NCBI GenBank assembly: GCA_963823915.1
Contig: CAWGNJ010000006.1
Coordinates: forward strand, 82,225 to 146,224
Reading direction: 5' to 3'
DNA: 64,000 nt
Source of the DNA: an uncultured Actinomycetota bacterium
GTDB lineage: Bacteria > Actinomycetota > Acidimicrobiia > Spongiisociales > UBA4744
A program made the position numbers and the translations under genes. Below the pieces are notes generated by a model, which worked only from the letters and a program-made list of their open reading frames with translations, searched no databases and was not told where the DNA came from. This document shows positions 1 to 64,000 of this stretch, piece by piece. Each line of letters opens with the position of its first letter. Position 1 is the stretch's first letter.

Positions 1-777
1 GGAGCGGATCCGTTCGGGGTTGTCGCCGGCGGCGACCAGGAGTTTGGCGGCGGTGTCGAACCCCACTCCGAACACTTCCAACAACCCGGGGGCGGTGTCA
101 CGGATCAAAGGTCGTAGCAGCCGGTTGAGCCGTTTGACCTCTTCCCGAAGGTATTTGACTCGTTGCCCGAGGGTGCGGATGGTGACCTGGGTGGTGTATC
201 TGACCGGGTCGTCACCTTCACGAGGTCGCAACACCGCAGCTTTGTTCGCCAACGAGATAGCCGTCAATCCGGTGAATTTGCGGCGGATCTCGGGGGTAGC
301 GGTGAACACCACGTGACGGAGCTGGTTGAGGGTTTCGATGCGGGTATCGACCGCCGAGCGGCGGGCGATCATCAACACCCGGATCGCTTCGACATTGCCA
401 TCTCGAGACTTCGGTAGCCCGGTGGCTTGACCAGATATCGCAGCCCGGGCGGCCGCCACCGCGTCGACCGGATCCGATTTGCCCTGCCGGTGCCGGGTTT
501 GACGGTTGGGGCGGTCGACCTCGACCACCGCCACACCGGCCCGGGTCAGATACCGAGACAGACCAACACCATATGAACCGGTGCCCTCCACCCCGACCAG
601 CACCAGCTCACCATGTGACCGCAGCCACGACAGCAACTGGCGATACCCGGTGTGGGTCGTGGCGAACGATTCAACACCCAACAGCCCCCCAACATGGTTG
701 ACCGCCGCAGCCACATGCACATCGACGTGAGTGTCGACACCACCGACCACCGCGTCAGGGTTTTCTACGATGGACAT
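1..777 (-). mobile_element. IS110-family transposase (DEDD type), C-terminus truncated by window edge
   Basis: Manual minus-strand translation from the ATG at 777: MSIVENPDAVVGGVDTHVDVHVAAAV... through ...GVGFDTAAKLLVAAGDNPERIRS. The N-terminal DTH(K/V)D motif and the C-terminal IS116/IS110/IS902 motif are both present. GGAGG RBS 5 nt upstream. The track missed it because the ORF runs off the window. Confidence 0.8.
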
Positions 778-1256
778 ATGCCATCCCTCCTCGCTAGACG
801 GACAGGGTTGGCACGCACTTGCCGGGAGGGTGGACCCAGAGATTCATCCGGACCTGGTTTCAGCAGGACCGGCACGGGTCTCCCACCCGACCGGTGAGTG
901 CCGTTCCCAGGGTCCGCCGGCGTGTCATTCGAAAGACAACCCCATCATCGGAGGTGTCAGCCGGTTCGCGAGCCAAGCCGAACCCCGAGAACTAACCAAC
1001 CGTAGTTTCCGGCCGAGGGTGACAGCCATCCACAACGATCAGCGCACCAACACATCCTCCCTGCCGGATATCGGGTTGTCAGCGGTGCCCGATAACGCGG
1101 CGTACCTCCGGGATTATGCGCTCCCTGGCGTCGGCTGCACTTGCCACAAAGGTCACCCCTCAGGGACGAGGTCAGGAGTCCAGACGAGGCTGGCCGCTCG
1201 AAATCGGCCTTGCACTGGAGTCAGAAATAGTTTACTCTATGTATGGTTAATCTTAC

Positions 1257-1820
1257 ATGGAGAGAGGGATGCGAATGCTCTGGATCACACTCGCAAGCAT
1301 CGGCGGTCTCCTCGTCGCCGCAGCGATTGGACGGTTCCTCTACGGCCTGCGGCCATCAGCGGAGCTGCGGGGACTGCCGGCAACGCCAATCGAGAAGCTG
1401 GCCTGGCTCGGACTGGGCGCCAGCCTCGCAGCAGGCGCCGGACTCGGTCTCGTGGTCCTCATTGGAGGCACCACGGGTCTCGAGAACTCCGCCTCCCGAT
1501 GGATCTTCTGGCTGCTGCTGTGGGTTGCGATCGGCACCTGGATGATCGCCTGGCACCGCACCAACCGGCGCCACGGAGGCGCAGTCATCGACGAACGCGA
1601 CCGCGCCATCCTGGCCCGATCGCTGAGCGTCGAGTCGATGGTCGTCCTGTTGTCGCTCGCCACCTGGACGATCACCCTGACCGAGGTCTACAGCCAAGAC
1701 GGCGCAGTACCGGTCGCCTACCTGCAACTGCTCTTCTGGAGCACGTTCCTCATCGCCATCTTCGGCCGGTCACTCGGGATCATCCTCGGCTACCGCCAGG
1801 AGGCAACCCCAGATGCCTAA
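1257..1820 (+). CDS. hypothetical integral membrane protein (about 4 TM helices)
   Basis: ORF with multiple hydrophobic helices and coding-like composition. Its 3' end overlaps the downstream XRE regulator by 8 nt, suggesting an operon. Confidence 0.5.
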   Translation: MERGMRMLWITLASIGGLLVAAAIGRFLYGLRPSAELRGLPATPIEKLAWLGLGASLAAGAGLGLVVLIGGTTGLENSASRWIFWLLLWVAIGTWMIAWHRTNRRHGGAVIDERDRAILARSLSVESMVVLLSLATWTITLTEVYSQDGAVPVAYLQLLFWSTFLIAIFGRSLGIILGYRQEATPDA

Positions 1821-2031
1821 GGCCCAGATCACCAACCGAATCCGCCAACTGCGCTTCGAGAACGGTGAGATGACCCAGCAGGAGCTGGCGAGCCGGGTCG
1901 GCTGCACCCGTCAGACCATCATCGTCCTCGAGAAGGAACGCTACGTCCCATCACTCAGCCTGGCCTTCGCCATCGCTCGAGTGTTCGACCTCCCTATCGA
2001 AGGGGTCTTCGAGTACGGCGAAGACCAATGA
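1813..2031 (+). CDS. XRE-family helix-turn-helix transcriptional regulator (72 aa)
   Basis: QQELASRVGCTRQTIIVLEKERYVPSLSLAFAIARVF is a classic Cro/C1-type HTH. Overlaps the upstream membrane-protein gene. Confidence 0.8.
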   Translation: MPKAQITNRIRQLRFENGEMTQQELASRVGCTRQTIIVLEKERYVPSLSLAFAIARVFDLPIEGVFEYGEDQ

Positions 2032-2492
2032 CCAGGCCTGACGTGCCAGTATCCCGGATTCGATGTGGCCGAGTCCTACTACTCAGCATTCTTCTCGTGG
2101 TCGCGGCCTGTGCCGGTCCGGACGCCGCGAAATCAACCGTCCCACCTGAGCCACAGGCGTTGGCTGGCATCTGGCTCGCCGAGTTTCGTGGCGTCGTGCT
2201 TCAGTTCCGGGTCGATCAGGGGCCGGCTCAGGATCTGACTGGCGTCCTCGACAGCCCGATGGAAGGGGTTACGGATCTGCCGACCACGATCACCGCGGAT
2301 GGGGCGAACGTGATCATCGAGATCCCGGTTGCTGCTGTCGTAATCGAGGCCACGGTGGAAGCCGACTCGCTTGCGGGCATCTGGAAACACCGCGGCGCCG
2401 AGGTGCCCATTTCCTTCACCCGACAAGCAGAGCCCTTCACCACTCGTCCGAACTCAGGAGCCGCAGCCTCCCTTCCCGTACGAATCCGTTGA
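2028..2492 (+). CDS. putative lipoprotein, possibly the N-terminal domain of the downstream hydrolase
   Basis: Signal peptide with lipobox LVVAACAG. The 3' end overlaps the hydrolase ORF in another frame. Confidence 0.45.
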   Translation: MTRPDVPVSRIRCGRVLLLSILLVVAACAGPDAAKSTVPPEPQALAGIWLAEFRGVVLQFRVDQGPAQDLTGVLDSPMEGVTDLPTTITADGANVIIEIPVAAVVIEATVEADSLAGIWKHRGAEVPISFTRQAEPFTTRPNSGAAASLPVRIR

Positions 2493-3483
2493 AGTGCGGT
2501 TCAACAGCGGCCCCATCCGGTTGGGCGGCACTCTCGTGATTCCCGAGGGGGTTGGGCCGTTCCCGGTGGCGGTGTTGATCAGCGGTTCCGGGCAACAGGA
2601 TCGAGACGAGTCGATCCTGGGTCACAAACCGTTCCTGGTGCTGGCGGACTGGCTCGCCCGCCAGGGCATCGCAACCCTGCGCTACGACGATCGCGGTGTG
2701 GGCGAGTCGGGGGGCAATCCGGCAGGAGCCACCTCGGCCGACTTCGCTGACGACGCGTTGGCAGCCGTCGCCTTTCTCGCCGATGATGAGCGCTTCTCGG
2801 CCATCGGCTTGATCGGGCACAGCGAAGGGGGACTCATCGCACCCATGGTGGCGGCCCAGGCCGACGTGGCCTTCACAGTGTTGCTCGCCGGACCCGGTGT
2901 GCCCGGAGCCGAAGTGCTGGCACAGCAAATCGAGGACCTGATGCGCGCCGAGGGTGCTTCTCCCAGTGCAGTCGACTGGCGGGTCGGGTGGGGAACGGAG
3001 GTCATTGCCCTCGCCGCATCGGACATGGACTCAGCTGACGTCGCTTCTCAGATCCGTGAAGTCCTGGAGGCAGCCGCAGATGACGTCCCGCCGGGACTCG
3101 AGCAATGGGTGAGCAGCGCCGCAATCGAGGAGACGGTGGCCGCATTCACCGATCCGTGGTTGCGCTACTTCCTCGCCTACAAGCCACAGCCCGCACTCGA
3201 GGCGCTGGCTATTCCGGTGCTGGCGCTGATCGGCAATCTCGACCAGCAGGTGTCGGCGGAGCTCAACATCCCGGCGCTCGAGGCGGCTCTTGCCGGCAAC
3301 TCGGACGCCACCGTCACCGAACTCGACGGACTGAACCACTTGTTCCAAACCGCGACCACTGGTGCCGTATCCGAATACGGGCGGATCGAGGAGACGTTTG
3401 ACCCGGACCGCGATGGAGTTGGTGTCAGACTGGATCCTGGAGCGCTTCTGAGAACGGGCGAGGAGATGGCCGTCGGACTTTGA
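2371..3483 (+). CDS. alpha/beta-hydrolase fold serine hydrolase
   Basis: GHSEGG nucleophile elbow (GxSxG). PFPYESVEVRF...GTLVIPEG is an abhydrolase N-terminal pattern. The first ~30 residues of the annotated ORF look out-of-frame, so the true start is uncertain. Confidence 0.75.
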   Translation: MRASGNTAAPRCPFPSPDKQSPSPLVRTQEPQPPFPYESVEVRFNSGPIRLGGTLVIPEGVGPFPVAVLISGSGQQDRDESILGHKPFLVLADWLARQGIATLRYDDRGVGESGGNPAGATSADFADDALAAVAFLADDERFSAIGLIGHSEGGLIAPMVAAQADVAFTVLLAGPGVPGAEVLAQQIEDLMRAEGASPSAVDWRVGWGTEVIALAASDMDSADVASQIREVLEAAADDVPPGLEQWVSSAAIEETVAAFTDPWLRYFLAYKPQPALEALAIPVLALIGNLDQQVSAELNIPALEAALAGNSDATVTELDGLNHLFQTATTGAVSEYGRIEETFDPDRDGVGVRLDPGALLRTGEEMAVGL

Positions 3484-5230
3484 CGATTGGCTTGCCGACG
3501 GCGCCCTGGGTCGACCACAGGGAGGCAGGGGTGGGCATCGATACCGAACGATTGCGGAGTCTGGTGGCTGGCAGGGTCGCCAGCGGCGCGATGGTGGCCG
3601 TCCTCGTCGTGGTGGGGTTCCTCTCGACCCTGCCGCCGAAGGCGCAGGGTGCCGACGCTCCCGCGACCGAGTTCTCGGCAGCGCGGGCGATGGAGCACGT
3701 CGACGAGATCGCTCGCGAGCCGCATCCGCTGGGCTCTCCGGAGAGCGAGAGGGTCCGTGCCTACCTCGTCGCCGAACTCGAGGCGCTGGGTCTCGAGGTC
3801 GACCTGCAGACCTTCATGGCACCCGACTACTACGGAGGCGGCGCCCGGATCGAACTGGCCAATGTGATCGGCTGGATCCCGGGAACGGCCAACACCGGAG
3901 CGGTGGTGCTGGTGGCCCACTACGACACCGTCCCGACCACGCCCGGCGCCAACGACAACTCCGCCGCGGTGGCGGCGCTCCTCGAGACCGCCCGGGCGTT
4001 GCGTGCCGGGCCTCCCCTCGCCAACGACGTCGTGTTCCTCTTCACCGATGCCGAGGAACCGTCGGGACCGTCGGGCCACTTCGGAGCCAGGGCCTTCGTG
4101 AGCCTGCCGGACGTGGTCGACGGCCTGGGGTTGGTGGTCAACTTCGAGGCGAACGGCGGCTCCGGGGCGTCCACGCTGGTGGAGACCAACGGATCGTCAT
4201 CGTGGCTGATCGGTGAGTTCGCGGCGGCGGCCCCGCATCCCGTTGCCTTCTCGTTCCTGACGGAGGTCGCCGAGTGGATCGGCGAGATCGGCACGGACTT
4301 CGATGTGTTCAGCGACGCCGGTGTGCCGGGGATCCACTTCGCCTACCTGCGCGGATCGCCGATCTATCACACACCCGGCCGACGACATCGACAGCGTCGG
4401 GCAGGGCTCGCTGCAGCACCACGGCTCGAACGCGCTGGCGATCGCCCGGCACTTCGGGGACCTGGATCTGACGACGGCTCCCGATCTCGGGGCGTCGGTG
4501 TTCTTCACGATCCGCCCGCTTCTTCGTTCGGTACCCGGTCTGCGCTGACCCCGTGGCTCGCTCTGATGGCGCTCGCTGGCTTCGCCTGGGCGATGTGGGC
4601 GGGCGCCGACGGGGCGCGGCTGCGGGGTGCCGCTCGCTCGCTGGGGCGGCCGCACTGGCCGGTCTGGGCGGTGCGATCGCGGGAACCGTGCTGTGGATGC
4701 TGGTGACCGCCTCCGCTCGACGCCCGGGATCCTCGAGATCTACTTCTACCTGGCGGTGCTCGTCGGGGTCGCCATCCTGGTCGCCAGGTGGGTGGAGGAT
4801 CGGTCGGGGGCGACAGCGCCCCGGCACGGCGAAACGGGCGGATCGGGCTGTGGATGCTGCTCACGCTGGTGACGGCGTGGTGGCGCCCGGGTTCAGCTAC
4901 CTGTTCGTGTGGCCGACCCTTGCTGCGGTCGCCGGTCTCCTGTGGCATCCGGTCCACCGTCGGTGGGCCTCAGCTGCGCTTCTTCGTCATCGCCGCCCCG
5001 ACGCTGCTGCTGCTGACCCCGGCCATCGACTACCTGTTCCTCTTCGCCATCCCCGGCCCGGCAATCCCGATTCGGAGATCACGCCGGCGATGGTGGTGCC
5101 GCTGCTGCTGGGCCTGCTGGTGGTGGCGCTGTTGGCCGAACCAGATGGCCGAGCAACCAGAGTCTGCCGATCGACCTGGTGCGTATCGCTCCAGCTTGAG
5201 TATGCAACGAAACTCCGTCACGGTGCCTAG
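3480..5230 (+). pseudogene. M28-family zinc aminopeptidase with C-terminal membrane region, disrupted by multiple frameshifts
   Basis: HYDTV...GANDNSAAVAALLE...FLFTDAEE are M28 metal ligands. The frame breaks near 4380, and the conserved YHTPADDIDSV continues in ORF 4303-4548. Downstream TM-like segments are scattered over three frames up to ~5230. Confidence 0.65.
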
Positions 5231-6227
5231 GCTAGCTTCTCGCTTCTCCGGAGAAGACCTAGACTTTCTCCATCCTGGAACCATCGCGTTCTAAGATCGG
5301 TCCATGGGATCACGTACATCGAGATCCTGAGTCCCATCGCCTCGGCTGCGTTCTCCCAGGGCAGCGACTTTACGGACAGAGTCCTGGAGTCGCTCCCAAT
5401 CCTTCTTCGCCGGAGGACGATCAGGGTGGACCCGAGGGCTTGGTCCTTGCGGTTGAATTGACCCGGCCATGGGCTCATTGCGAGTAGACGTCGACGGAGG
5501 CGTCGTATTGAAGGTATACAGTTCGCCGTCATGCGCAGGTCGAACACAGCAACCCGAGCATACACGCCTGCCCTTGTCCTCGTCGACACTCTGCACACAG
5601 AGCAGGATCCGACGTTGCCGTCGCGGAACGTCACCTCTAGGACGTCGCCGACTTGGTCAGGGACAGATCAGACTTCTGCCTCTTCCAGATTCTCTTCGGA
5701 TCGCTTGTACGGCCCAGTCAACTGCTCCCGGACCTGATCCAGCGCCTACACGGCGTGACCTCGATCTTTGCCGGACGAATCGGCTCACATCGGTGCCGTC
5801 ATCGATGTGAGCCAGCTCACGAATCGCGAATGCTGTCCTCTAGACGCCCTACCTCGAATTGTGCAACAGCCAAAGCGATCCAGAAATACGAAGGATTCGT
5901 CTGGGTCTTCGACCCACACCGGCGTAGCTAGCGAGCAAGCGATCTGTCGCAAGCGCTCCGTCGAGACCTTCAGCCACGAGATCGCGGTCTTCCGAGCGAA
6001 ACATCAGCAGCAATGTCGTTCTCTGAAGACTTTGACACCCCCAAGTTCCCCATAGCCGGTGAGGCTTACCGACCCATGTGGCCACCTTCCTCGAAACCCG
6101 CTGACCGCGAGACGCCCCTGAGCATCGATTGGAGAACCTCACCCGGAGCGCTCTGGCACTCCTTCGACCCTCCCGCCCCCGATCAAATCAATATCGGGCG
6201 ATATCGCTCCGTTTCCTGACCACCCGA

Positions 6228-11137: not shown

Positions 11138-12197
11138 ATGTCGCCTCCGACCCTCGCATCCAATCAGCTCCGGGTAGCGATGCTTGCCCCGATCTCGTGG
11201 CGGGTTCCGCCGCGGCACTACGGGCCGTGGGAGCAATTTGTCTCACTGCTCACCGAGGGGCTGGTCAGCCGGGGAGTTGACGTGACCCTGTTCGCCGCGG
11301 CCGACTCGGTGACGCGGCGCGGCTCGGTCGGGAACCGCCCCGACGGGATACTCCGAAGACGCAGGGTTGGACCCGAAGGTCTGGGAGAGCTTGCACATCT
11401 CGGCCGTTTTCGAACGGGCCGAAGAATTCGATGTGATTCACAACAGCTTCGATTTCCTACCGCTCACCTACAGCGGTCTGGTCGAAACCCCGGTGGTCAC
11501 AACCATCCACGGATTCTCGTCCGAGCGGATCGTGCCTGTCTTCGAGAAATACAACGATCGTGGCTACTACGTGGCGATCAGCGACGCCGACCGGCACGAG
11601 AAGCTCGACTACGTGGCCACGATCCACCATGGCATCGACATGCAGGCGTTTGCGGTGCGTCCGGAGGTCGGCGACTACTTGTTGTTCTTCGGGAGGATCC
11701 ATCCCGACAAGGGAACTGTCGAAGCCATCGAGGTGGCCGAAAGAGCCGGCATACCGCTGACTATCGCAGGGATCATCCAGGATGATGATTACTTCGAGCG
11801 GTTGGTGAAACCCCGGGTAGATGGAGAGCAAGTCACCTACATCGGCCCGGTGGGTCCCGGCGCCCGCGGGGGACTGCTAGGCGGTGCCCGGGCACTCCTG
11901 CACCTCATCAACTTCGACGAGCCGTTCGGGTTCAGTGTGGTTGAGGCGATGGCCTGTGGGACTCCGGTGATCGCCCATCCCCGAGGATCGATGTCCGAAC
12001 TGATACGCGCCGGCGAGAACGGGTTCTTGGTGGGTTCCGTCGGGGAGGCCGTTGCAGCCGTCCACGCCTCGGCCGAAATTGATCGGCTGGCGGTGCGGAG
12101 GTCGGTCGAGCATCGTTTCGACGTCAGCCGGATGATCGATGAGTACCTCGCCGTCTATCACCGCGTTGTGGAGCACCGCCGGACGGGTCGGGTGTGA
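11138..12197 (+). CDS. GT4-family glycosyltransferase, with a frameshift near 11330
   Basis: N-terminus LRVAMLAPISWRVPPRHYGPWEQFVSLLTEGL reads in one frame. The rest reads from SEDAGLDPKVWESLH onward in another, with EPFGFSVVEAMACGTPVIA (EX7E). The break is at a CGCCCC run. Confidence 0.75.
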
Positions 12198-12200
12198 AGG

Positions 12201-13448
12201 GTGGCAGTGTCCGCTGATCCGGGCCGGCCGGTCCCAACGGAGCGTTTTCGGCTGGGCGTCAACTACTGGCCCGCTCGCACTGCCATGGGCTGGTGGACAG
12301 ACTTCGATGCCGCCGAGGTTGGCATTGACTTCCGCGTGCTTGCGGCCGCCGGCTTCGATTCGGTCAGAGTGTTCCTCACCTGGGAGGATTTTCAGCCCAC
12401 CCCGAAGAGCGTGCACACCGGAATGCTCGAACGGCTGATCACGGCGGCGGATCTGGCCGGGCGGGCGGGCTTGGCCTTGATGCCCACTCTCTTCACCGGC
12501 CACATGAGCGGAGTGAACTGGATCCCGGCCTGGGCCCTCGGTGGCTCGGATGGCGACGACCGCTTCCGGGTGATGTCAGGGGGCAAGATCACCCGAGCGG
12601 GCTTGCGGAACTGGTACGCGGATCCAGAGGTCGGGCGGGCCCAAGCGCTGCTGGCGGGAGTAGCGGCGACCGCGCTGGCCGGCCACGAGGCGGTGTGGGC
12701 GTGGGACCTTGGCAACGAAAACTCGAACTGCGTGATACCGCCGAACCGATCGTCGGCTCAGGACTGGTTGAAGCAAATGACCGCGGCGATTCGCACCGCC
12801 GACCCGGCAGTTCTCGTAACCATCGGCCTGCACATGGAGGACCTGGAAGAGGACCGGATGCTCGGTCCGGGGGAGGCCGCCGAGGAGTGCGATTTCCTAA
12901 CCATGCACGGCTACCCGATCTACGCTCGCTGGGCGGAGGGTCCCACAGATGAGCACTTGCTGCCCTTCCTAGCCCACCTGACCCGCTGGCTGGGAGGGGG
13001 TCCTGATGTTCTCTTCTCAGAGTTCGGCTTGCCGACCTGTCCGCGGGCTGGTCCGGAGGGGGAGGAAGTCTGCCGGGACAGGCCTGCGGTGCTCGTCGAA
13101 GAGCGAGCCGCAGCCGCCTACACGGAACGAGCCCTATTCGCTCTCCGCGGGGCCGGTTGCACCGGGGCCATGCTGTGGTGTTACACGGACTACGTCCCGG
13201 CCATCTGGGTCGAACCTCCTTTCGACATTGCGACCCACGAGCGTTCGTTCGGACTTTGGCGAGCCGATGGTTCACCCAAACCGTCTGTGGAGGTTGTGGA
13301 GGCGTTCACCGGAGTAGACCAAGTCGCCGGCCCTGACGGCTACTCCTGGATCGATATTGCACCGGACGACTTCTATTCCACGCCTGGTGAGCACCTCGCG
13401 TGTCTCTACCGTCGCTATCGGACGAGTGAAGTGACTAACGCTCCGTAA
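12201..13448 (+). CDS. TIM-barrel glycoside hydrolase, GH5-like (possible beta-mannanase/cellulase family)
   Basis: LGVNYWP...DSVRVFLTWEDFQP; WDLGNENS is an NEP-type catalytic acid motif. GTG start 4 nt after the GT4 stop. Confidence 0.65.
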   Translation: MAVSADPGRPVPTERFRLGVNYWPARTAMGWWTDFDAAEVGIDFRVLAAAGFDSVRVFLTWEDFQPTPKSVHTGMLERLITAADLAGRAGLALMPTLFTGHMSGVNWIPAWALGGSDGDDRFRVMSGGKITRAGLRNWYADPEVGRAQALLAGVAATALAGHEAVWAWDLGNENSNCVIPPNRSSAQDWLKQMTAAIRTADPAVLVTIGLHMEDLEEDRMLGPGEAAEECDFLTMHGYPIYARWAEGPTDEHLLPFLAHLTRWLGGGPDVLFSEFGLPTCPRAGPEGEEVCRDRPAVLVEERAAAAYTERALFALRGAGCTGAMLWCYTDYVPAIWVEPPFDIATHERSFGLWRADGSPKPSVEVVEAFTGVDQVAGPDGYSWIDIAPDDFYSTPGEHLACLYRRYRTSEVTNAP

Positions 13449-14615
13449 GCCGGGTGAGGAGATCGTCGAGTGGCACGGTGGCAATGCCGGCTCCGACGTC
13501 CGAGAACCCGTAGGGAAGAACGAGATGGTTCCCGTGAATCATGCTCCCGCACGAGTACACGACGTTGGGCACATATCCGTCGCGTTCGTCTTCGGCTGGT
13601 TCGAGCAGTGGCTCGTTCAGGTGGCCGATGAGGCGGCACGGATCCTGGATGTCGAGAAGGATGGCTCCCAACGTGTAGCGGCGCAGCGGTCCCACTGCAT
13701 GGGTGATCACCAACCACCCGGCCTCGGTCTCCAGCGGCGAACCGCAGTTGCCGAGTTGCACGAGTTCCCAAGGGCGTTCGGGTTCCTGGATCTTCTCGGT
13801 TTCGTGCCAGAAACGTACGTTGTCTGAGAGCATGAGGTAGTTGTTCTCGTTGTCCTGGCGGGCCAGGGCCGCAAAACGGCCGTCGATCTTGCGCGGGAAC
13901 AGGGCAATGCCCTTGTTGTGCGCCGCGTTTCCATTGAGGGTGGCGACACGAAAAGTCACGAAGTCCGGGGTTTCTATGAGTTGCGGGAAGGATTTGGATC
14001 CCGTCGAACGCCGTATAGGTGGCGAAATAGACCACCACCCCGTCGTCATCAGTGAAACGAACGAAGCGGGCGTCTTCCATCCCGTGGCTCTCCGTCGGGC
14101 CCGCCGGGAACATCACTCGTTCCGAGATCTCGGAATCTGTCGGGAAGGTGCTCGCGTAGTTCGAAGACGCCAGCCAGTGGATGACCTTGATGGTCTGAAA
14201 GGCGACGGCACGATCCACGCCCTGGCGATCGAGATCCCCGATAGCCGCCTCGAGCTGCTCGAAAGTGAAATGAGAAGGAAGCGGATCGAGACACATGCGA
14301 GATGATGTCATTGAACGCCCCCAACTCCTCGAGCTTGGTCGACAAGACGTGTTTGTCGTAGATAGGGGACCTGCGACGGGCGGTCATGGCGTATCGACTG
14401 GGCTCGTCCATCTTGATCTTTCCGTGGGCGTCGATCACGCCCGAGCGGAACTCGACGGACGAGACGTGTCCCTCGCCGATTGCCCGCAGACTCATGACGA
14501 ACCGTTGTTCCCCCGGATCCAGACCAACCTGATCGGGGGCCGGGACAATCGACGGATTGCTGAGGGAAGCCGCCTCAATCGAGTACTCGTGAGTGAAGTA
14601 TGCCCCGATCAGCAA
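13435..14615 (-). CDS. GH130-family glycoside phosphorylase (beta-mannoside phosphorylase-like), split over three frames
   Basis: EDARFVRFTDDDGVVVYFATYTAFDG, GIALFPRKIDGRF and VPNVVYSCGSMIHGNHLVLPYGFSD are GH130 hallmarks. One break lies in a CCCC run near 13975. Confidence 0.65.
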
Positions 14616-14987
14616 ACGTCGTTCCGGGAGAGATCGTTGGGGTCAATGTGCCCGGCCACCAACGCGAAGTTGCCCTCGAGAATGCTGCTGAGGTCTTCGT
14701 GCCGGCCTGCAAACCGGTCCTGGGCGGCTTCAGAGTGGAGGTCACCTCCTGCTCCGACATGGCCAGGATCCGCTTGATGATGAGCTGCACGCGTGACCGC
14801 CCGTCTGGAAAGACCTGCTTCCCCGGCAAGAACGGTTTGGTGATCACGCGCTGGCGGATCGGGAGTGAGCCGCACCGGGGTGCGCGTGACGGGATTGGGT
14901 TCATGTTGTGGATCGCTTGTCTCTGACTGTCGGCGCCGTTGGCTGTGCGCGGAAACGCCAGAGCAGAGCGTAGGCGACCCGCAGGGC

Positions 14988-17604: not shown

Positions 17605-18072
17605 GTGAGGTTCTTCATCCCATATCTGCGAGACGCCCCTAAAGCCGCGGAGGCCGAATGGCAGGAGTACCTGCGAGAGGTGTCCGCACCAGCCGACAGC
17701 AAGCGGGCGTACTCCGTCGTGTACCACCACGAAAGCTCCAAGGTCATCGCCACCGTTGGCGAACGACGACTCGTCTACGCCTCCGAGCCCGGACCTCGAG
17801 GCGAGTACACACAAACCGCCGACCCCGAACCGGTCGAAAGACGAACGGGGCCGGAGATCTCCGCGATCATCGACACCGGACACGACCTCATTTACCTCAT
17901 CTACGTTTGGTTCTACGGGGCACCTTTCGGCGAGTGGGCCAATCCAAGCCTCATCGGGAGATCCGAGGTCGAGGACATCGAGTACTTCGAGAACGCCCAA
18001 TTGGCGGCCCCGCATTTCCGTCTGGATCTGCACGCGTGTCCGACCACGACCCAAATGGCCTCGAGGCTATGA
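17605..18072 (+). CDS. hypothetical protein
   Basis: ORF with balanced aromatic-rich composition and a GTG start. No recognisable motif. Confidence 0.4.
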   Translation: MRFFIPYLRDAPKAAEAEWQEYLREVSAPADSKRAYSVVYHHESSKVIATVGERRLVYASEPGPRGEYTQTADPEPVERRTGPEISAIIDTGHDLIYLIYVWFYGAPFGEWANPSLIGRSEVEDIEYFENAQLAAPHFRLDLHACPTTTQMASRL

Positions 18073-22206: not shown

Positions 22207-22262
22207 TCAGGAACGCGACAAACGAGAAACGAGAAACTAGAAACTAGAAACTGGAAACTAAG
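22207..22262. repeat. heptanucleotide microsatellite (agaaact-like, 6 copies)
   Basis: agaaacgagaaactagaaactagaaactggaaactaagaact. Confidence 0.8.
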
Positions 22263-24357: not shown

Positions 24358-24370
24358 GATAGCCACGAGG

Positions 24371-34118: not shown

Positions 34119-34164
34119 AGCCGCTTGGCTTCGGATGACGTACCGTCACGACAGGCGAGGGTTG

Positions 34165-35331: not shown

Positions 35332-35340
35332 CCGCGGTGG

Positions 35341-53805: not shown

Positions 53806-54781
53806 ATGACCCGCGACCCCACGTGCCAGCGTCGGCCTACCCGTCTACAACGGTGAGGCATTCATCGCCGACGCACTTGATTCGGTGCTCGCTCAGACAT
53901 TTGACGAGTGGGAAGTGATCATCTGTGACAACGCCTCGACTGATGGGACGGCAGAGATCTGCATGGCGTATGTCGAGAAGGATGAGCGGATTCGTTACTA
54001 CCGAAACGAAACGAATCTGGGCGCATCGAAGAACTACGAGCGTACCTATGAGTTGTCGAGTGGCGAGTACTTCTGTTGGTTGCCATCTGACGATGCAATG
54101 GAACCCGATTTCCTAGCTCGTTGCGTCGACATGCTGGACAACGACCCTGAGGTTGTCAACGCGTTTTCGCAATACCTCATCAGGAGCGGCACGGATGCCC
54201 CGGTGTCCCATGAGATCAGTCTTGACTCGGACATGCGGTTTGTGTCGACGTACCAAAGGGTGAGGAAACTGTTTCGCGAGCGCATCATCGGTCCCAACTG
54301 GCCCATGTTCGGGGTATACCGCTCGAGCATTCTGAAGGACACAGGTCGCCTCCGGCCGATGATCGGAGCGGACGATTATTTGACACTCGAAGTGGCGTTG
54401 ATGGGACAAGTCGGGCAGGTACCGGAACAGCTGTACGTGATCCGAACCCATCCCGATGCATGGCACGTAGCCCGGGAGTCCAAGGGCAAGGGGCTGCTGG
54501 CAAGGTTGCTGGGGACGGAGACTGTCTGGGCAGCCGCCTGGTTCGATCCGGCCAATGAGAAAATGCGGGTGGTTTTCCCGCATTGGCGGCGTCTGCAAGT
54601 GTTTGCCAGCCTGATTATGCGTTCCAAGACGGGTTTTGGCGAAAAGCTGAAGATGCTCGGATTGTTGCCCGTGTACGCCGTTCAGCACTGGCGCCGACTC
54701 GCCAAAGAACTTGTCGGTGGTGTAGCCCAGTTGATCGTCGTTCCGCTTCGAGCCCTGAAGAAGTCGCCGACCCCGTCCTAG
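53806..54781 (+). CDS. GT2-family glycosyltransferase, with an N-terminal frameshift near 53822
   Basis: ATG at 53806 gives MTRDPT, then the reading shifts to SVGLPVYNGEAFIADALDSVLAQTFDEWEVIICDNASTDGT...WLPSDD (DxD). Confidence 0.8.
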
Positions 54782-56302
54782 CTTGGTAGATCGGCGTCAA
54801 CGACGGCTTTCGGCCGTTCAGTCCGACGTCGACGTGCGCAATCCCGAACTTGGGGAAGAGGCCGCCAGGGGCGTACCCGAGGTATCTGTGGGCGCCGAGA
54901 ATGGCGACGAAATACACGCCCGCGCCGAGAACAGGTGCCCATCCCAGCATCCACCCGCTGTCGAGGTCAGGAACCCAGTTCTTGACCAAGGTGAGAACAC
55001 CCAGCATGAGCATTGCACTTGCGGCGGGGACCGCCAACGGGCGCAGGAGCGTCGCTGGTCGGGCTTGCAGAATTCTCGTCGCCACATAGAGGCCGACGAC
55101 AAAAGGAATCGCGGCGACGACGGTCGCCCAGGCCGCTCCGCGGATGCCCCACATGGTTGTAAACGGATAGATGAAGATGGCAAGCAGGACCACTGTTGCG
55201 GTCCACAGAATCGTATTGATGTAGGGCTTGCCGACGCCGTTGAACAACGGGTCCGTGGTGCCGGCTACCGCCCTGACCAGACCCCAAATCAGCAATACCT
55301 CGTAGGCGCCGAGGAGTGGCAGCCACTCGTCGGGTAGAAAGACTCCGACCGCGGTCGGGCCCAGAAACCACAGGCCGGCGGTGATCGGCATGGCCACAAG
55401 CGCGACCAATTGGAGAGCCTGTAGATAGGCGCCCCGGAGTTTGGGCAGGTCTCCCTGCAACTTGGACAGAGCCGGGAAAGCCACATCGTTGACGACGCCG
55501 GCGATCTGCTCGGTGATCAAGGCAGAGATCGTGAAGGCCATCTGGTAGAGCGCGAGGTCCTCGGTACTCAGTACCCGACCTACGACGATGTCGTCGAGAT
55601 TGAGCATCAGGAAGACCAGGATCATGGAGCCAAGAATCCAACTTCCGAACCGCACGAGATCCATCGTCTTCTCGCGATCGAAGCGGAGCCTCGGTCGGTA
55701 CCTGTGAGCGACGTATGAGCCGATCGTCATGGTCAACTGGTTGGCTACCCGCCCGAGTACCAGGGCCCACACGCTTTGCAGCAGGATGGCGGCGGTCACC
55801 GCCACAACCAGATCGACGACGTGCGGCAACGATCGATACACAAAACGTTGTCGGAACTGGAGTTCTTTGTCGAAGAACACGACTCCGATGTTGTTGAGAC
55901 CGTTGAGAAAGACCACCAGAGCTAGAGCGCGGATCACGTTCGCCGCCGCGTCCGTTGTGAAAGAAGGTCGCGATCAGCGGTGCGCCTGCCAGCAGGATGA
56001 CTGCCAGGATGACACCGCGGATCACCGTAATGGTCCAAGCGACATCGAGGTGATCCTTGATGTCGCCCTCGCGCTGAACCAAGGCCTGGCTAAAACCCGT
56101 CGTAGTGAAGGTCTCGAGGAGGGCGAGCGTTAGAAGAGCGATTCCCATGAGTCTCGACCTCGCCCGTCCCCAGGAAATTGGCCACGACGACGAGTCGCAC
56201 GATTCGCAACGATTTGGTGAGGCCGCTCAGGGCAAACGCCCAGAACCCGGCGTTGGCCGTGCGGCTCCTGAGCGAGTCACCTGGATGGAGGACCCACTGC
56301 AC
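54615..56302 (-). CDS. Wzx-type polysaccharide flippase (MOP/MATE superfamily), with 2 frameshifts; true 3' end probably near 54.88 kb
   Basis: Three frames carry consecutive Wzx segments: ANAGFWAFALSGLTKSLRIVRLVVVANFLG, then MGIALLTLALLETFTTTGFSQALVQR, then ALALVVFLNGLNNIGVVFFDKELQFRQRFVY, followed by more TM helices. The C-terminal ~80 residues look out-of-frame. Confidence 0.7.
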
Positions 56303-57030: not shown

Positions 57031-57821
57031 TCAATCCCCGTTGCGCGGGTTCCACACCTGCCACGGTGCCGTTCCCGATGCGTGTAGTTGGTCGAGCCGC
57101 TGCTTGTCTTTGAATGTATCCATTGGAGCCCAGAAACCCGTGTGCCGGTGGGCATACAACTGGTCGGCAGTGATCAAACGTTCGAATGGCTGTTCAACCA
57201 GTTCTTCGCCTTTCTCCATGTAGTCGAATGTCTCTTGCTTGAGTACGAAGTAGCCGCCGTTGATCCAGAAACCCGCCTTGCTGATCTGGTGGGTATCCGT
57301 CACCCGGCCGAGGTCGTCGATCTCCACCGTGTGGTAACTCCCCGGTGGAGGTACGGCCACGAAACCGGCTACTTTGCCTGAGCTCTTGAAGGCGTCGAGG
57401 TAGTCGGGAAGGTTGAGGTCGGTGACGCCGTCGGCATAGTTGGCCATGAACATCTCTTCACCCTCAAGATGAGAACGCAAGCGAACCAGACGTTCCCCGA
57501 TGTTCGATCTGGCACCGGTATCGACGAACGTTATCTTCCAGTCGTGAATGTCGCTGTTCGCCAGGTCGATCTTCTTTCCGCCCTCTGAGAATACAAAGTC
57601 GTTGGACGCTGTCTCGTCGTAGTTGAGAAAGAAGCTCTTGATAGCGTCGGCTCGGTAGCCAAGGGCCAGAATGAACTCCTTGTGCCCGAAGTGGGCGTAG
57701 TACTTCATCAGGTGCCAGAGGATTGGGCGGTATCCGACGGGCACCATCGGTTTGGGGATTGTCTCGGAGTACTCGCCGAAGGCGGGTGCCTTCCCCTCCG
57801 CAAAAGATCACCACCTTCATG
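57031..57821 (-). CDS. rfbF: glucose-1-phosphate cytidylyltransferase, with a frameshift near 57783
   Basis: MKVVIFCGGEGTRL N-terminus in one frame; EYSETIPKPMVPVGYRPILWHLMKYYAHFGHKEFILALGYRADAIKSFFLNY... is RfbF/DdhA-specific. Confidence 0.8.
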
Positions 57822-59115
57822 AGGTCTTCTCCCAGTTCGGGTAGGTGCACTGCTCCTGCCAGAGGCGCCATCCGACGGAGTCGGCCGGGGTGTCAATGTC
57901 GGCCATGGTCAGGGGTTGGTCTTTGGCGATGGGCCTCACCACTTTGCATCGATCGGTTAGTCCCTCGGGCACGAGATCCTCGGCGCGGGCTTGCAGGCTG
58001 TTCTCCATGATTCCATAGACCGTGAAGCCGCCGATCCCGTCCAAGACGTCACCGGGTTGAAGGTCCTTTTTGGCGTACGCGATCACGTCTGTCACCGGGG
58101 CACCGAGCGGGGTCATGGCCGCATCGCCGAATATGGCCGCCCGGGCGATTGTGACCGGAGTCTCGAGCGGTCCGAGGTGGGACGGCACGTAGAACGTGTA
58201 GAGCGGGCCCTCGCCCATCTTGTACACCTTCATGTACCGCTGCATCCACTTCTCGTCGTTGTAGCCCAGCACGAATACTCCAAAGCTCGGTTCGGCTCCG
58301 AGGATGTAGTCGACATAGCCGGGGCCGTTGATGAGTTGTTCTGATCGAACACATCGGGAGCCTCCTCAACTCGACTACAGCGAGGCCCGTGCATGCCCGC
58401 GGGTCATGACCCCGAATCCGGTGCCGTTGGCCAAGGTGGCCATCTCGAAGGCGATCTTTGACCCGTCGGCGAAGCTGGTGATCATCTTGGGGCGTTGCCA
58501 CACGTTCTTGGCAAACTCCGCCTGGGTCTCGGGGGTCCGGTAGTAGTCGAGCAACGACTTGATGTTGCCGAGCAAAACCGGTCGGAAACCCAACGTCTTG
58601 ACCTGGCGCATCAGATTCATCAGGACTGCCGGTTGGTCGCCATCCATATCGGTCAGCACCACCCCGGCTGCGTCCGCTTTGGTCTTGAGGATTGGGCCGA
58701 GGGTGGCGTCCAATTCGGCGTTGACCAGCACGATGTGCTTGCGGGCCTCGATGCCGGCCAGCACGACCCGGGCGGCATGTTCCACCTCACCGGTGGCGTC
58801 GACCAGCACATCGGTTCCGGGAGCGGAAGCCGCCATGACCGGATCGGTCGTTACGGCCAGTTGGCCGGCGGTTATCGCAGCTTGCAGCGCAGTTTCGTCT
58901 TCAACGACGACGTAGTCCGCGATCTCCAAATTGGAGAGGGCCTGCTCGATTGTGGCCATGGTGCGGTTGGCGATGACCGACAAGCGGATCCCGGGGGTTG
59001 GTCGCTTCAGCTGGAGAATCAAACCTTGGGCCGCAAAACCGGCGCCACTCAATACGACCCGGATCGGGTTGCCCGCCGCTTCCCGTTGTTGGAGTGCTTC
59101 GTCGATGATGATCAT
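57817..59115 (-). CDS. NAD(P)-binding oxidoreductase with C-terminal SAF domain (COG4091-like), split in two frames
   Basis: N-terminal Rossmann VVLSGAGFAAQG in ORF 58375-59115. The C-terminal SAF-like region is in ORF 57817-58272. The overlap implies a frameshift near 58300-58375. Confidence 0.55.
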
Positions 59116-59667
59116 GGCTTCCTTCCTTCGAGCCGGGACATGAAATCCGGCCAGCTCAAGTCTTTCTCAGAGACGATCACACCGTCGGTGATCGGCCACT
59201 CGATACCAAACGACGGGTCGTCCCAGCGAGCTCCGATTTCTACTCCCGGCTCGAACGGAGCGGAGGCGGTATAGATCACTTCGCTGTTGTCCTCGAGAGC
59301 CTGATAGGCGTGGGCGCACCCGGCCGGAACGGCCATCGCCAAGCGATTGTCGGGCGAAAGCTCTACACCCGTCCATCGAAGGTAGGTTGGTGAGCCCGGG
59401 CGTACGTCGACACAAACGTCAAAGACCCGTCCGGCGATACAGCGCACGAACTTGGCCTCCGGGTACGGATCCGGGCGCCAGTGCAGGCCTCGGATCATTC
59501 CTGACTGGTTCGATTGAGACATGTTGATCTGGGCGATGTGGCCGTCCACTCCTGCCTGCGCCATCTCGTCGGCGCACCAGGCGCGGGCGAAATAGCCACG
59601 CTCGTCCGTGAACGGCTCCAGTTCAACGATCCGGCAGCCTTCAACCTCGGTCGGAACGAACTTCACG
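59112..59667 (-). CDS. NDP-4-keto-6-deoxyhexose 3,5-epimerase (RmlC/RfbC-like cupin)
   Basis: GTG start giving MKFVPTEVEGCRIVELEPFTDERGYFARAW...GLHWRPDPYPEAKFVRC...VSEKD. Confidence 0.75.
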
Positions 59668-60705
59668 TCATACCCGCCAGAAGAATTGATCGTCGATCTG
59701 ACCGGTCTCGAGCAGATACTGGATCTGCTTGAGACGCCGATGCCGCCGCGAAGTGAGGAATCGAAGAGTCGAACTCGACACGATCGAAGATCTCGCGGAG
59801 CTCGGCGACCCCTTGCGGACATCCCAGTCAGCCGAGAACCCGGGTAGATTGGGTGTTGATCTTGTCGAAGTCGACGCGATAGTTGCGGGTGTCGCCGCCC
59901 ATGTTCGCCGATCATGACCTCACAACCGGGTATCTCCTCGCCGATGATCGTGCAGATGTCGCGCACCTGATAGTTGGCCCGGGAGTCCCCAACATTGAAG
60001 GCTTCGGCTCGAACGGCGTCGGCGGGTGCTTCCATGGCGCAGATCATCGCCCGGGAAATGTCTCTGATGTGAACAAACGGCCGCCAGGGGGTTCCGTCGC
60101 TCTCCAAGACCAGCTTGCGGTCCAGGTAGGCCATGGCCGTCAACTCATTGACGACGAGGTCGAAGCGCATCCGCGGGCTGGCGCCAAAGGCCGTGGCGTT
60201 CCGCAGAAACACGGGGGTGAAAGAGTCGTCGGCCATTGGGCGGAGATCGTTCTCGACTTTCACTTTGCATTTGGCGTATGCCGTGATCGGGGCGGTGGCG
60301 GACTGCTCGTTGCTCAATTCGTCGCTTTCCCCGCCGCTGGCGCCGTACACGCTGCACGAGGACGCATAGACGAACCGTTCGACTCCGGCCTGCTTTGGCC
60401 ATTTCGGCGAGCCGGACGGTGCCTCGATGGTTGATTTTGTAGGTGAGTTCGGGGTCGAGTTCGCCGACCGGATCGTTGGAGAGGTCCGCGAGATGAATGA
60501 TGGCATCGAACCCTTCGAGTTGGCGGGGTTCGGTCAGCCGGGTGTCGAGACTGCGCCATTGCGGAGCAGCCTCGACGCCGTCGTAGAGCCATCCGACCCG
60601 GTGGTAGCCGGCGTCGTAGACGTGGACATCATGCCCTTGCTGCAGCAACTTCGGCCCCAGTACCGTGCCGATGTAACCCTCACCCCCGGTCAGCAATACC
60701 TTCAT
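59664..60705 (-). CDS. NAD-dependent sugar epimerase/dehydratase (extended SDR), C-terminal third scrambled by frameshifts
   Basis: MKVLLTGGEGYIGTVL (GxxGxxG), then ERFVYASSCSVYG...YAKCK (YxxxK) in a second frame. The C-terminus RRLKQIQYLLETGQIDDQFFWRV-stop overlaps the RmlC start. Confidence 0.65.
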
Positions 60706-61756: not shown

Positions 61757-62886
61757 TGGCACGCCCACACCCCGCCCTGATCGAACTCGCTGCCAACCGG
61801 GCCTTGCCTCCGATCGGTGATCTTGCGGGGTTTCTGGGCTCCGCTCTCGAACACAGGATGATCGGCCTCGTGTGGAATCGGGTAAAAGCAGGCGAATTGG
61901 TGCTGGAGCCCGACGATCACCGAAATCTGGCTGCCGAGAGCCTCAAGACTGAGTTTCGCCACCACCAACTGTCAGCGGCGCTCAGCCGTGCCAGTGAACG
62001 CCTCTTGGAGAAAGGTATTGAAGTTGCGACGTTCAAGGGGGTGGCGGCCGAACAACGATGGTATGACCAGGTGGGCGATCGTCCCTGTTGGGACGTCGAT
62101 CTGTTGTTGGCCCCGCACAACCTCGACCGGGCGGGCGAACTGATTGAGATCCTCCAACCCAAAATGCGAAACGACGGACGGCTCCAGCGACTCGTTGACT
62201 CCGGAGCTCTGCAGACCATTGACATCGAGTTTGACGGTGTCGTGCTCGATCTCCATTTCGATCTCTTCAAACTTGGGTTTCGAAGCCGCCAGCAGAAACT
62301 GCTCTGGGAGCGAAGCTTGATGGTGTCTCTACCGGGGGGAGAATCCGTCCGCGCTCTAGATGGGGAAATCTCGCTGATCTTCTCGCTACTCCATCTCAAT
62401 CGAGACCGATTTGCCAAGCTCCTGGGCTTTGCCGAAGTGGTGCGGATAGTCGAACGCCAGGAAATTGACTGGGATTTCGTTGAGGCATTCGTGGAGGTAG
62501 AGGGTCTGGAGACTTCACATCGGTTGGCTCTCGGCGTTGTCTGCGAAACGTTGGGGATCGAACCTCCTGTACCCGTCGCCACGGCCGGTTGGCGAAGCAA
62601 GGCGTGGAGCGCATTGTGGCCACCTGAGCAACGGTTGTTGGGAGAAGAAGGCCGGCTCAGCTTCGGACGCCGGAGCGTCCTGGCGTTTTCCTTCCTTGTT
62701 CGAGGTCGGAAAGGCGACGCAGCTCGGTACGTACTGAGGCGTATGTTGCCGAATCGCGACATGGTCGATGTGGTTCACCCGGGCACCCAGGGCCCCTACC
62801 TGTGGCGACTGGTCAACGCTCGAGTCGGCCAGCGGATGAAAAGAAGGCGTGAGCGAAGGGCTCTCGAGCAGGCCAGGGGGTCCTGA
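61756..62886 (+). CDS. PF14907-type nucleotidyltransferase-family protein (the class often co-located with lasso/RiPP clusters)
   Basis: 376 aa. ATFKGVAAEQRWYDQVGDRPCWDVDLLLAP is an NTase G..D.D motif. The start overlaps the B1 stop. Confidence 0.6.
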   Translation: MARPHPALIELAANRALPPIGDLAGFLGSALEHRMIGLVWNRVKAGELVLEPDDHRNLAAESLKTEFRHHQLSAALSRASERLLEKGIEVATFKGVAAEQRWYDQVGDRPCWDVDLLLAPHNLDRAGELIEILQPKMRNDGRLQRLVDSGALQTIDIEFDGVVLDLHFDLFKLGFRSRQQKLLWERSLMVSLPGGESVRALDGEISLIFSLLHLNRDRFAKLLGFAEVVRIVERQEIDWDFVEAFVEVEGLETSHRLALGVVCETLGIEPPVPVATAGWRSKAWSALWPPEQRLLGEEGRLSFGRRSVLAFSFLVRGRKGDAARYVLRRMLPNRDMVDVVHPGTQGPYLWRLVNARVGQRMKRRRERRALEQARGS

Positions 62887-62901
62887 GGGGCGGGCCCGGG
62901 T

Positions 62902-63821
62902 TTAGTGAGCGCCCCGGCCCGACCACACAGCCGGCATGGTCTGGGCGAGAAGCTTCAATTCCAGACCCAAACCCCAGTTCTGGATGTATTCAAGATCCAT
63001 CTCTACCCAGGTGTTGAAGTCAACGTCGGATCGACCACTCACCTGCCAGATACATGTCAGACCAGGCTTGGCGAGGAGACGTTGGAACTCCCAATCGCCG
63101 TACTCCTCGACCTCGGACGGAATAGGCGGCCGGGGACCCACCAGGCTCATTCTTCCGGCCAGCACGTGGAAGAGCTGAGGGAGCTCATCGAGGCTCAGCT
63201 TACGAATCAGTTTCCCCACTGGCGTGATCGGGTGTTCGCACGAATCTTGAAGATCGGCCCATCCGCCTCGTTGACATCCTGAAGGTCGGTCAGCCAACTA
63301 TCGGCGTCCATCTTCATGGAGCGGAACTTGAAGAACCGGAATGGAACACCGTGGCGCCCGATGCGCTCGCTCACGTACAACAGAGGTCCGGGCGAGGTGA
63401 CTGCAATAGCCAGCGCCGTGATGACAAACAAAGGAGAGAAAAGCAAGATTGCGACCAGGGCCCCGACGATATCGATCAAGCGCTTCGCTCGCGGTTTCCA
63501 CACCGGAGCCGAGAGAGGCCGGGCGGTTTCGTCGAGAAACAGTCGTGTATCGACCTCGACCGGCTCGGTTCCCTGACGCAGGTCGATGACGACGTGAAGG
63601 TCGTCGACTCTTGGATCTGTTTCAGGATCGATCGCCTCTTCGGCGACCTCTTGATGCAGCCTTAGCCCCCCGAGAACCTGATTTGGCTCGGAGAATGCCG
63701 CCCCTTCGGATGTCATTTCATGCCCCTTTGGGCCCTGGCGGGCCGCCTCCCTTATGTTGTCCAACCGCACGATCGGTAGCGGCCTGTCGGTGTCTGGCAC
63801 CGACTCCCCATGGCCAACCAC
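62902..63821 (-). CDS. polyprenyl-phosphate glycosyl-1-phosphate transferase (bacterial sugar transferase, WbaP/PglC-like), with a frameshift near 63250
   Basis: RLIDIVGALVAILLFSPLFVITALAIAVTSPGPLLYVSERIGRHGVPFRFFKFRSM in one frame; LDELPQLFHVLAGRMSLVGPRP (signature) in the other. Confidence 0.8.
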
Positions 63822-64000
63822 GGTCCGCCGTGACTATCCAGCTTTTAGCCACGCACAGCGGTTATGTGTCCACCCTATCCAATGTCGTGTTGTTACGACA
63901 ATGGGGCGCTCGCCCTATTTTCTGGTTGCCCATGGTAACTAGTGATGAAACGCGGTTCGGTGAGGCTAGGCCGTTAGCATCGTCGTGCAAAGCATTTACA

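Follow-up and report, generated by a model that had tools for sequence, protein, structure and literature searches.

Bacterial genomes in decay, such as those of Mycobacterium leprae and recent endosymbionts, carry nonsense mutations, large deletions, expanded insertion sequences (IS), relaxed dN/dS and a deletion bias, and the indels of bacterial pseudogenes in general are deletion-biased. The stretch of DNA studied here, 64,000 nt of a public 186.5-kb contig from an uncultured Acidimicrobiia bacterium (hereafter called the window), resembles these genomes in that a large fraction of its genes is frame-disrupted, housekeeping genes included, but differs from them in that their marks of decay were not seen in the genes that we compared. 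Broken frames also arise during assembly: residual-indel frameshifts have been documented in long-read assemblies and metagenome-assembled genomes (MAGs) (PMC9262707; bioRxiv 10.1101/2021.08.23.457338; PMC8103633), and IDEEL-type checks, proovframe and short-read polishing are directed at such residual indels (PMC9262707; bioRxiv 10.1101/2021.08.23.457338; PMC8103633; PMC8812927). As with the errors of long-read or hybrid (meta)genome assemblies, the window has conserved genes split by 1-nt indels, clean substitutions and unbroken neighbours, and a shortened protein (P0145, see below) has reached the databases. It departs from the classic description of such errors, in which mistakes of homopolymer length are evenly spread, in that its insertions are patchy and lie mostly outside homopolymers; and whereas the classic nanopore profile is one of homopolymer deletions (PMC9262707; PMC8812927), that of the window is insertion-biased and G/C-rich. 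We conclude that the frame disruptions are very probably residual small-indel errors in the contig consensus, and not real pseudogenes.

Disrupted genes and their unbroken relatives

The window was compared with six independent assemblies (JGI, ENA and GenBank) that are 80–100% identical to it. Two metagenome contigs, L163 (18.6 kb) and L166 (7.1 kb), both from JGI sample 3300045962, served as near-identical references; they match window positions 10632–36329 at 98–100% identity (98.2–99.2% over the aligned contigs), and every gene is unbroken in both. The ENA contigs L164 and L165 are 94% and 80% identical to the window, respectively, and the GTDB MAGs L082 and L083 are ~90% identical. Between 36.3 and 64 kb, where there is no near-identical reference, the interpretation as artefact is extrapolated from 1–36 kb and from the shared indel-only pattern. 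A scan of JGI metagenome contigs gave no relative of the O-antigen-ligase-like gene (39712–41061), the best relatives in a metagenome scan for the M28 peptidase were only 36–49% homologues, exact-protein look-ups with the hydrolase at 8250–9158 and with fcl returned no match, and nor did Rfam and tRNA scans.

In total, the window contains at least 100 indels of 1–2 nt, which break ~22 genes (Table 1); insertions make up about three-quarters of the total and consist chiefly of G or C. The first-pass annotation, made from the DNA letters, had named 17 disrupted genes, and we verified 16 of these; the other, a small HTH gene (1812–2031), is unbroken and collinear with L083. Its estimate of 1–4 frame switches per gene proved too low, with up to 16–19 indels in a single gene, and its gene list omitted at least four cases (the alpha/beta-hydrolase, the gene at 5.2–6.0 kb, the GT4 at 16.3 kb and hyp158). 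The compensating pair that it described in CGL is present, although at a spacing of 38 nt rather than 45, and leaves an out-of-frame stretch of ~12–15 aa. The neighbours that it considered intact, namely the genes for the sigma-70 factor, wzc, fcl, gmd and most GT4s, are indeed unbroken.

Table 1. Frame-disrupted genes and intact controls in the window, with the disruptions located in each and the relatives in which the frame is unbroken.
Feature	Coordinates	Strand	Disruption or supporting evidence	Unbroken in
alpha/beta-hydrolase (Hydrolase_4 / Peptidase_S15-like; Pfam)	2097..3483	+	private 1-nt insertions at 2440, 3408	L082 and L083, ORF 462–473 aa (three-way alignment)
M28 peptidase, C-terminal membrane domain	3531..5230	+	16 private 1–2 nt indels (three-way alignment)	
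unnamed gene remnant	5215..6045	-	~17–19 insertions of 1–2 nt; all frames closed	L082 (11759–12487), 242 aa
GT4 (11.3 kb)	11180..12197	+	deletion 11314, insertions 11321 and 11329	L163, 338 aa
GH130	13435..14910	-	six 1-nt indels: 13988, 14304, 14626, 14727, 14853, 14894	L001/L163, 489 aa
GT4 glycosyltransferase	16099..17239	-	1-nt insertion at 16277; C-terminus scrambled	L163, 379 aa
hypothetical 158-aa gene (hyp158)	17605..18072	+	2-nt insertion at 18030	
DDAH/ADI-like	20866..21636	+	1-nt deletion at 20965; 0 substitutions vs L163	
CGL, cystathionine gamma-synthase/lyase	22258..23406	-	compensating deletion 22910 and insertion 22948	
PALP (CBS-like)	23406..24366	-	six 1-nt indels: 23429, 23719, 23801, 23846, 23872, 24188	L163 and L165, 318 aa
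ctaA (heme A synthase)	24549..25467	+	indels 24689, 24697, 24789, 24812 (2 nt), 24927	L163 and L165, 304 aa
YyaL (Thioredox_DsbH)	25999..28025	-	seven 1-nt indels, 26586 to 27511	L001, 673 aa
sigma-70 factor, intact control	28293..29333	+	100% identical to L163	
lhgO	29495..30710	+	one inserted G at 30317; profile DAO 1–352/353 over junction	
methyltransferase, hyp158b, wzc, GT4, WecG, intact control block	30819..36135	.	4 substitutions, 0 indels vs L166	
beta-helix paralogue 2	46260..48240	+	one frame switch ~46560–46590, between signal/TM N-terminus and body (basis: paralogue comparison only)	
GT2 glycosyltransferase	53809..54781	+	Glycos_transf_2 1–166/168 on stitched protein	
wzx flippase	54818..56302	-	switches ~55953, ~56152; Polysacc_synt_3 2–290/293 over both	
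rfbF (glucose-1-phosphate cytidylyltransferase)	57031..57820	-	switch ~57778; TIGR02623 1–255/255, stitched	
COG4091 / DRL-type oxidoreductase	57817..59125	-	compensating pair ~58395 and ~58342; DRL_cat 1–164/164 across	
SDR epimerase	59666..60705	-	switches ~60396, ~59903 and about three at 59700–59860	
Bac_transf priming sugar transferase	62902..63800	-	switch ~63229; Bac_transf 1–177/179 across	

The indels of the M28 gene are confined to 4377–5215, the first 850 bp of the gene being free of them. Twenty M28 homologues change frame at 4373/4381, the switches in the membrane domain not being shown by these homologues, and in the frame-stitched protein the Peptidase_M28 profile match (1–192/193) crosses the junction. 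Together, the alpha/beta-hydrolase and M28 genes hold 18 private window indels, all missing from L082 and L083, and between those two MAGs there are 189 substitutions and no coding indel in the same genes. The ~830 bp at 5.2–6.0 kb carry ~19 insertions and one 3-nt deletion; the 242-aa product encoded there has no Pfam family match. For the GT4 at 11.3 kb, the frame-stitched protein gives one continuous profile match over the junctions. The GT2 domain already starts ahead of every in-frame start codon, and the sole ATG (~53809) is in another frame, which places the switch inside the first ~10 codons. The stitched SDR epimerase covers its profile completely (1–240/240), with the C-terminal stitching supported only to about residue 300.

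Net frame changes were also recovered, independently of the alignments, by an ab initio Viterbi pass with a codon model. Two of its calls, at 31596 and 36064, were false positives, the window and L166 being the same there; those in the Thr/Pro-rich linkers of the beta-helix paralogues were judged to be composition artefacts, and those at the gene boundaries 1809, 13419, 29331, 37059 and 61742 artefacts of gene overlap or composition. A candidate frameshift at ~7885, in an AadA-like nucleotidyltransferase gene, brought a weak gain in score from 38.3 to 44.5 bits and was left uncounted. A fragment of an IS110-family transposase lies at the left end of the window (1–777), and no compared gene is interrupted by an IS.

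Spectrum and clustering of the indels

Against L163 and L166, the window has 49 private indels (48 + 1) between 10.6 and 36.3 kb, comprising 37 insertions and 12 deletions; 45 are of 1 nt, three of 2 nt and one of 3 nt. All 49 are absent from both references, and none of those in CGL, PALP and ctaA occurs in L164 or L165. The homopolymer runs (CCCC and the like) in which breakpoints had been placed by the first-pass annotation lie only near the true sites, and just two of 48 indels fall inside runs of at least 4 bases, while in 25 of 32 single-base insertions the added base differs from the bases on both sides. A nanopore-type pattern of homopolymer runs and deletion excess was thus not found, insertions outnumbering deletions by 36:12 among the 48.

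Nor are the errors evenly spread. The indels are clustered (index of dispersion 2.5, p=2.5e-8) into patches 0.3–1.7 kb long, with a density of 1–2.5% against a background of ~0.2 per kb, and it is in these segments that the window also holds genuine strain SNPs, mostly synonymous, relative to the near-identical contigs; the six indels of GH130, for example, fall inside a SNP-rich patch. Counted per 500 bp, SNPs and indels are correlated in number (Spearman rho 0.67), and 31 of 48 indels have a SNP no more than 50 nt away, where 14.7 would be expected. The idea that insertions represent a 'second allele' of a neighbouring SNP was dropped, because 8 lay within 3 nt of one, compared with 5.4 under a local-jitter null (P=0.15).

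Selection on the affected genes and the origin of the disruptions

In 21.3 kb of coding sequence compared with the near-identical contigs, 105 of 157 substitutions are synonymous (67%, compared with 26% for random changes; binomial p=3e-27), so that 33% change an amino acid where ~74% would do so under neutrality, and 102 of 153 are at third codon positions. Nonsense changes are absent from the 157 substitutions (4.9 expected if neutral), no internal stop appears when the window alleles are projected onto the reference frames, and the compared genes contain no large deletions or mobile-element insertions. The lhgO and ADI genes have no substitutions, and one indel apiece, relative to the near-identical contigs. 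Purifying selection is ongoing in the underlying genes, and the damage cannot be old.

These results, with the indels private to the window among six assemblies, bear out the earlier preference for indel errors over decay; long-read-only assembly, also suggested there, is a plausible source. The sequencing platform and the mechanism of the patches are what we infer from the pattern. The contig may have been assembled from noisy reads in which several strains were mixed, in which case segments identical between strains would have had a well-supported consensus, or later polishing, and come out clean, while those in which the haplotype diverged from the dominant strain would have had a consensus from few reads or been left unpolished. 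In such divergent segments, strain-specific SNPs and indel noise like that of raw reads would persist together, and the affected genes would be functional in the organism. For SNPs and errors to cluster together, one must further assume a path through a minor strain that had low coverage or was left unpolished.

Were the frameshifts instead real mutations in a decaying, pseudogene-rich lineage, the large number of genes affected, among them ctaA, the only wzx and the only priming transferase, would be accounted for, and for 36–64 kb real mutations are compatible with the sequence alone. We consider this very unlikely, because the compared genes lack nonsense changes, large deletions and IS insertions and have mainly synonymous substitutions; because insertions exceed deletions by ~3:1, the opposite of the bias of bacterial pseudogenes; because indel density reaches 2% within genes while adjoining genes are 100% identical to a relative; because lhgO and ADI have indels in spite of zero substitutions; and because every indel is private when set against six assemblies. 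Of the two features of a decaying genome, relaxed selection and a deletion bias with a load proportional to divergence, neither was found. The co-localization of indels with SNP-rich patches might suggest that the patches are real, recombination imports or error-prone repair having brought in true SNPs and small indels together. However, the SNPs in them have been filtered by selection, as their third-position and synonymous bias shows, so that any imported alleles encoded working proteins, and a load of roughly one frameshift for every four SNPs cannot be reconciled with this; the corresponding patches of L164 and L165 are free of indels, and single indels turn up in genes without any SNP, all of which makes this explanation less likely still. 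On this view a natural strain with short, truly divergent tracts and dense non-homopolymer insertions would have lost about 20 genes, ctaA and the O-antigen machinery among them, to inactivation, while the rest of its population kept them unbroken, an interpretation to which we likewise allow only a slim chance.

Any pairwise difference is two-sided, and the formal possibility that the reference contigs are wrong and the window correct must be weighed, although we found no support for it. It can be given next to no credence, as the references have long unbroken ORFs and full-length Pfam matches where the window versions are broken, and as the six assemblies agree against the window and would all need to share the same compensating errors. 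Restoration of the frames by programmed frameshifting, transcriptional slippage or non-standard decoding has nothing in its favour except that some essential-looking genes are frameshifted. The indel sites have no common motif or context and are outside slippery runs, there are up to 19 of them per gene, and close relatives encode the same proteins free of shifts, and we regard such recoding as hardly conceivable.

Use of the record

If the disruptions are residual consensus errors, as we conclude, they reveal nothing new about the biology of the organism, whose genes here are ordinary and almost certainly functional. The record is, however, unsuited to pseudogene counts or to protein databases without frameshift correction, and metabolic reconstructions from the uncorrected sequence would be at risk for heme A synthesis, cysteine/methionine metabolism and O-antigen export. 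The technical interest lies in the fact that the consensus errors gather in patches where strains diverge, and not in homopolymers, since assumptions of uniform error and polishing confined to homopolymers would miss them. One product of such an error is already public: P0145 (290 aa; NCBI, ENA), from a contig of 186,500 bp, is exactly the shortened lhgO product of the window, and it represents a public protein cluster to which the unbroken 401-aa protein P0241 also belongs.

Frame breaks and their detection

The frames are broken at the sites named by the first-pass annotation, by three independent lines of evidence. Using a codon-usage Viterbi model, trained on 14 intact genes of a near-identical contig and allowing penalised frame jumps, we called 46 frame changes in the window; wherever the truth was known, the model recovered the real net shifts, being blind to compensating pairs less than ~45 nt apart and producing false positives where genes overlap and in the Thr/Pro-rich linkers. 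Proteins stitched across the predicted junctions each gave one single, essentially full-length profile match spanning the junctions (see table), and the stitched LhgO (404 aa) aligned over 99-100% of its length to homologues of 401-404 aa. The third line was base-level alignment of the window to intact relatives. Between them, these approaches bore out 16 of the 17 genes listed as frame-disrupted; for beta-helix paralogue 2, it was paralogue comparison only that pointed to a break. The small HTH gene is not disrupted: it encodes an intact 72-aa HTH_3 protein, collinear and free of indels relative to L083, a related GTDB MAG sequence, and its apparent frame switch is an ordinary gene overlap.

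Features of the window. Profile matches are for stitched proteins, except for the transposase.
Feature	Position (strand)	Indels vs L163/L166	Profile match
IS110-family transposase, N-terminal part, cut by the window's left end	1-777 (-)		DEDD_Tnp_IS110 2-150/155
Small HTH gene	1812-2031
M28 peptidase	3531-5230 (+)		Peptidase_M28 1-192/193
Apparently non-coding region	5215-6045
AadA-like nucleotidyltransferase	7197-8004
Unannotated insertion patch	10747-10984
113-bp tandem repeat	21862-22068
AAACTAG repeat	22220-22260
sigma-70/lhgO intergenic region	29340-29460
lhgO (truncated ORF)	29495-30367	1	DAO 1-352/353
26-nt motif, upstream of gmd	38094-38119 (-)
26-nt motif, upstream of GT2	53717-53742 (+)
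Beta-helix paralogues	44608-50401
Beta-helix C-terminal blocks	44912-46031, 47126-48237, 49284-50403
YyaL		7
GH130		6
PALP (CBS-like)		6
ctaA		5
GT4 (11.3 kb)		3
CGL		2
hyp387		2
GT4 (16.3 kb)		1
hyp158		1
ADI (DDAH/ADI-like)		1
wzx			Polysacc_synt_3 2-290/293
SDR epimerase			Epimerase 1-240/240
Priming sugar transferase			Bac_transf 1-177/179
GT2			Glycos_transf_2 1-166/168
rfbF			TIGR02623 1-255/255
COG4091 gene			DRL_cat 1-164/164

Comparison with intact relatives

The window has a GC content of 62%, and tRNA and Rfam scans of it returned no matches. The top homologues of its cystathionine gamma-synthase (CGL) come from Acidimicrobiia MAGs, and the nearest GTDB genomes are uncultured Acidimicrobiaceae/Acidimicrobiia MAGs (M28 peptidase amino-acid identity ~91%). 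The difference between the window and one CGL homologue, P0001, is almost confined to a short out-of-frame stretch of ~12-15 residues; P0001 lies on JGI contig Ga0484979_0002196 (L163), which was fetched in full, and a second contig of the same sample, L166, was reached via the LhgO cluster. Together, these contigs cover window positions 10632-36329 at 98.2-99.2% identity with all genes intact. The window departs from them by 49 indels (37 insertions and 12 deletions; 45 of 1 nt, three of 2 nt and one of 3 nt), a count that leaves out one hypervariable intergenic repeat, and ~36 of these are coding. The last indel of the gene-by-gene count, at 14987, falls just beyond the stop codon of hyp332, which is intact. 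Six single-base insertions within 240 bp lie upstream of a GT4 gene, in sequence unannotated by the L163 gene caller, and thus error patches extend beyond genes.

The more distant ENA contigs L164 (94%) and L165 (80%) carry none of the window indels in CGL, PALP or ctaA. In a three-way alignment of window 2070-5290 with the GTDB MAG sequences L082 and L083, all 1-2 nt indels within the hydrolase (two) and M28 (16, all in the final 850 bp) genes were private to the window; between L082 and L083 themselves, this region shows 189 substitutions and, inside the two genes, no indels. The region at 5215-6045, apparently non-coding in all six frames, can be aligned to an intact 242-aa ORF of L082 with ~19 insertions and one 3-nt deletion. 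Homology searches with window sequences found no near-identical reference for 36.3-64 kb, where the evidence consists of the profile-spanning stitched proteins and the same restriction of the damage to small frame shifts.

Sequence error or gene decay

When the window alleles were projected onto the reference frames (21.3 kb of coding sequence), 105 of the 157 substitutions were synonymous (67%, where random changes would give 26%; p = 3e-27), none created a stop codon (~4.9 expected) and 102 of 153 fell at codon third positions. They are thus genuine differences between strains that selection has filtered, in the most damaged genes too. The indels cannot share that history, because they are more numerous than amino-acid changes in several genes, occur in lhgO and the ADI-like gene, which have no substitutions, are biased towards insertions, and reach a density of ~2% in the tail of the M28 gene and in the 5.2-6.0 kb gene, adjoining indel-free sequence. 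The compared genes show neither nonsense mutations nor large deletions nor IS insertions alongside the indels. The whole pattern agrees with consensus error and is at odds with gradual decay; the sequence error favoured by the first-pass annotation is very probably the correct interpretation, and the frame disruptions are not a biological feature. Long-read assemblies and MAGs are documented to suffer from such frameshifts (PMC9262707; bioRxiv 10.1101/2021.08.23.457338; PMC8103633; PMC8812927).

The errors are not, as had been proposed, homopolymer errors. Runs of four or more hold only two of the 48 indels relative to L163, 25 of 32 single-base insertions are unlike both neighbouring bases, eight of 12 deletions remove a base standing alone, and the three homopolymers quoted lie 10-20 nt from the true indel sites. 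Nor are they evenly spread: the indels are patchy (index of dispersion 2.5, p = 2.5e-8), with 31 of 51 500-bp bins empty. The patches coincide with segments of real SNPs between the window and L163 (Spearman 0.67), and 31 of the 48 indels have a SNP within 50 nt (14.7 expected), with no excess at the ≤ 3 nt scale. In these segments the contig may follow a minor haplotype, and the consensus or polishing would be weakly supported, so that strain SNPs and read-level indel noise would survive together; segments common to the dominant strain would be clean.

The record that holds the window is itself public, and one such error has travelled with it. P0145 (290 aa; NCBI and ENA; on a 186,500-bp contig) matches the product of the truncated lhgO ORF letter for letter and is the representative sequence for a public 90% protein cluster in which an intact 401-aa LhgO is also found, an example of assembly error spreading into protein databases.

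Repeats, paralogues and minor elements

A secreted right-handed beta-helix protein (Pfam Beta_helix) is present as three paralogues in tandem, which have in common a 1.1-kb C-terminal block with 99% identity and no gaps, so that this stretch is clean of errors; ahead of it lie Thr/Pro-rich linkers of 27- and 36-nt repeats. Their sequences suggest a recent duplication or gene conversion, and this arrangement would break short-read assemblies here. The sigma-70/lhgO intergenic region is hypervariable, with ~2.4 copies of a 21-nt repeat in the window, apparently also at the end of L163, and GCTGTCC heptamer repeats instead in L166 from the same sample; both short-read contigs end or start in it. 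Between the ADI-like gene and CGL lies a G+C-rich 113-bp unit, present in 1.8 tandem copies and containing inverted repeats, followed by 5.9 copies of the 7-nt AAACTAG. The two alignment blocks with L163 overlap at the 113-bp repeat, which suggests that L163 may have one copy fewer.

Measured against the AadA_C profile, the ORF of the AadA-like nucleotidyltransferase ends ~30 residues early; a plausible C-terminus would be regained by a frame switch near 7885, but with a small gain in score (38.3 to 44.5 bits). A 26-nt motif, AACARCTAYTCTGAGTGGTGGGAGGT, occurs twice (24/26 identical): one copy directly precedes gmd, and the other lies ~65 nt ahead of the GT2 gene. Its 3' end holds a Shine-Dalgarno-like GGGAGG, and the polysaccharide operons may share it as a leader or regulatory element.
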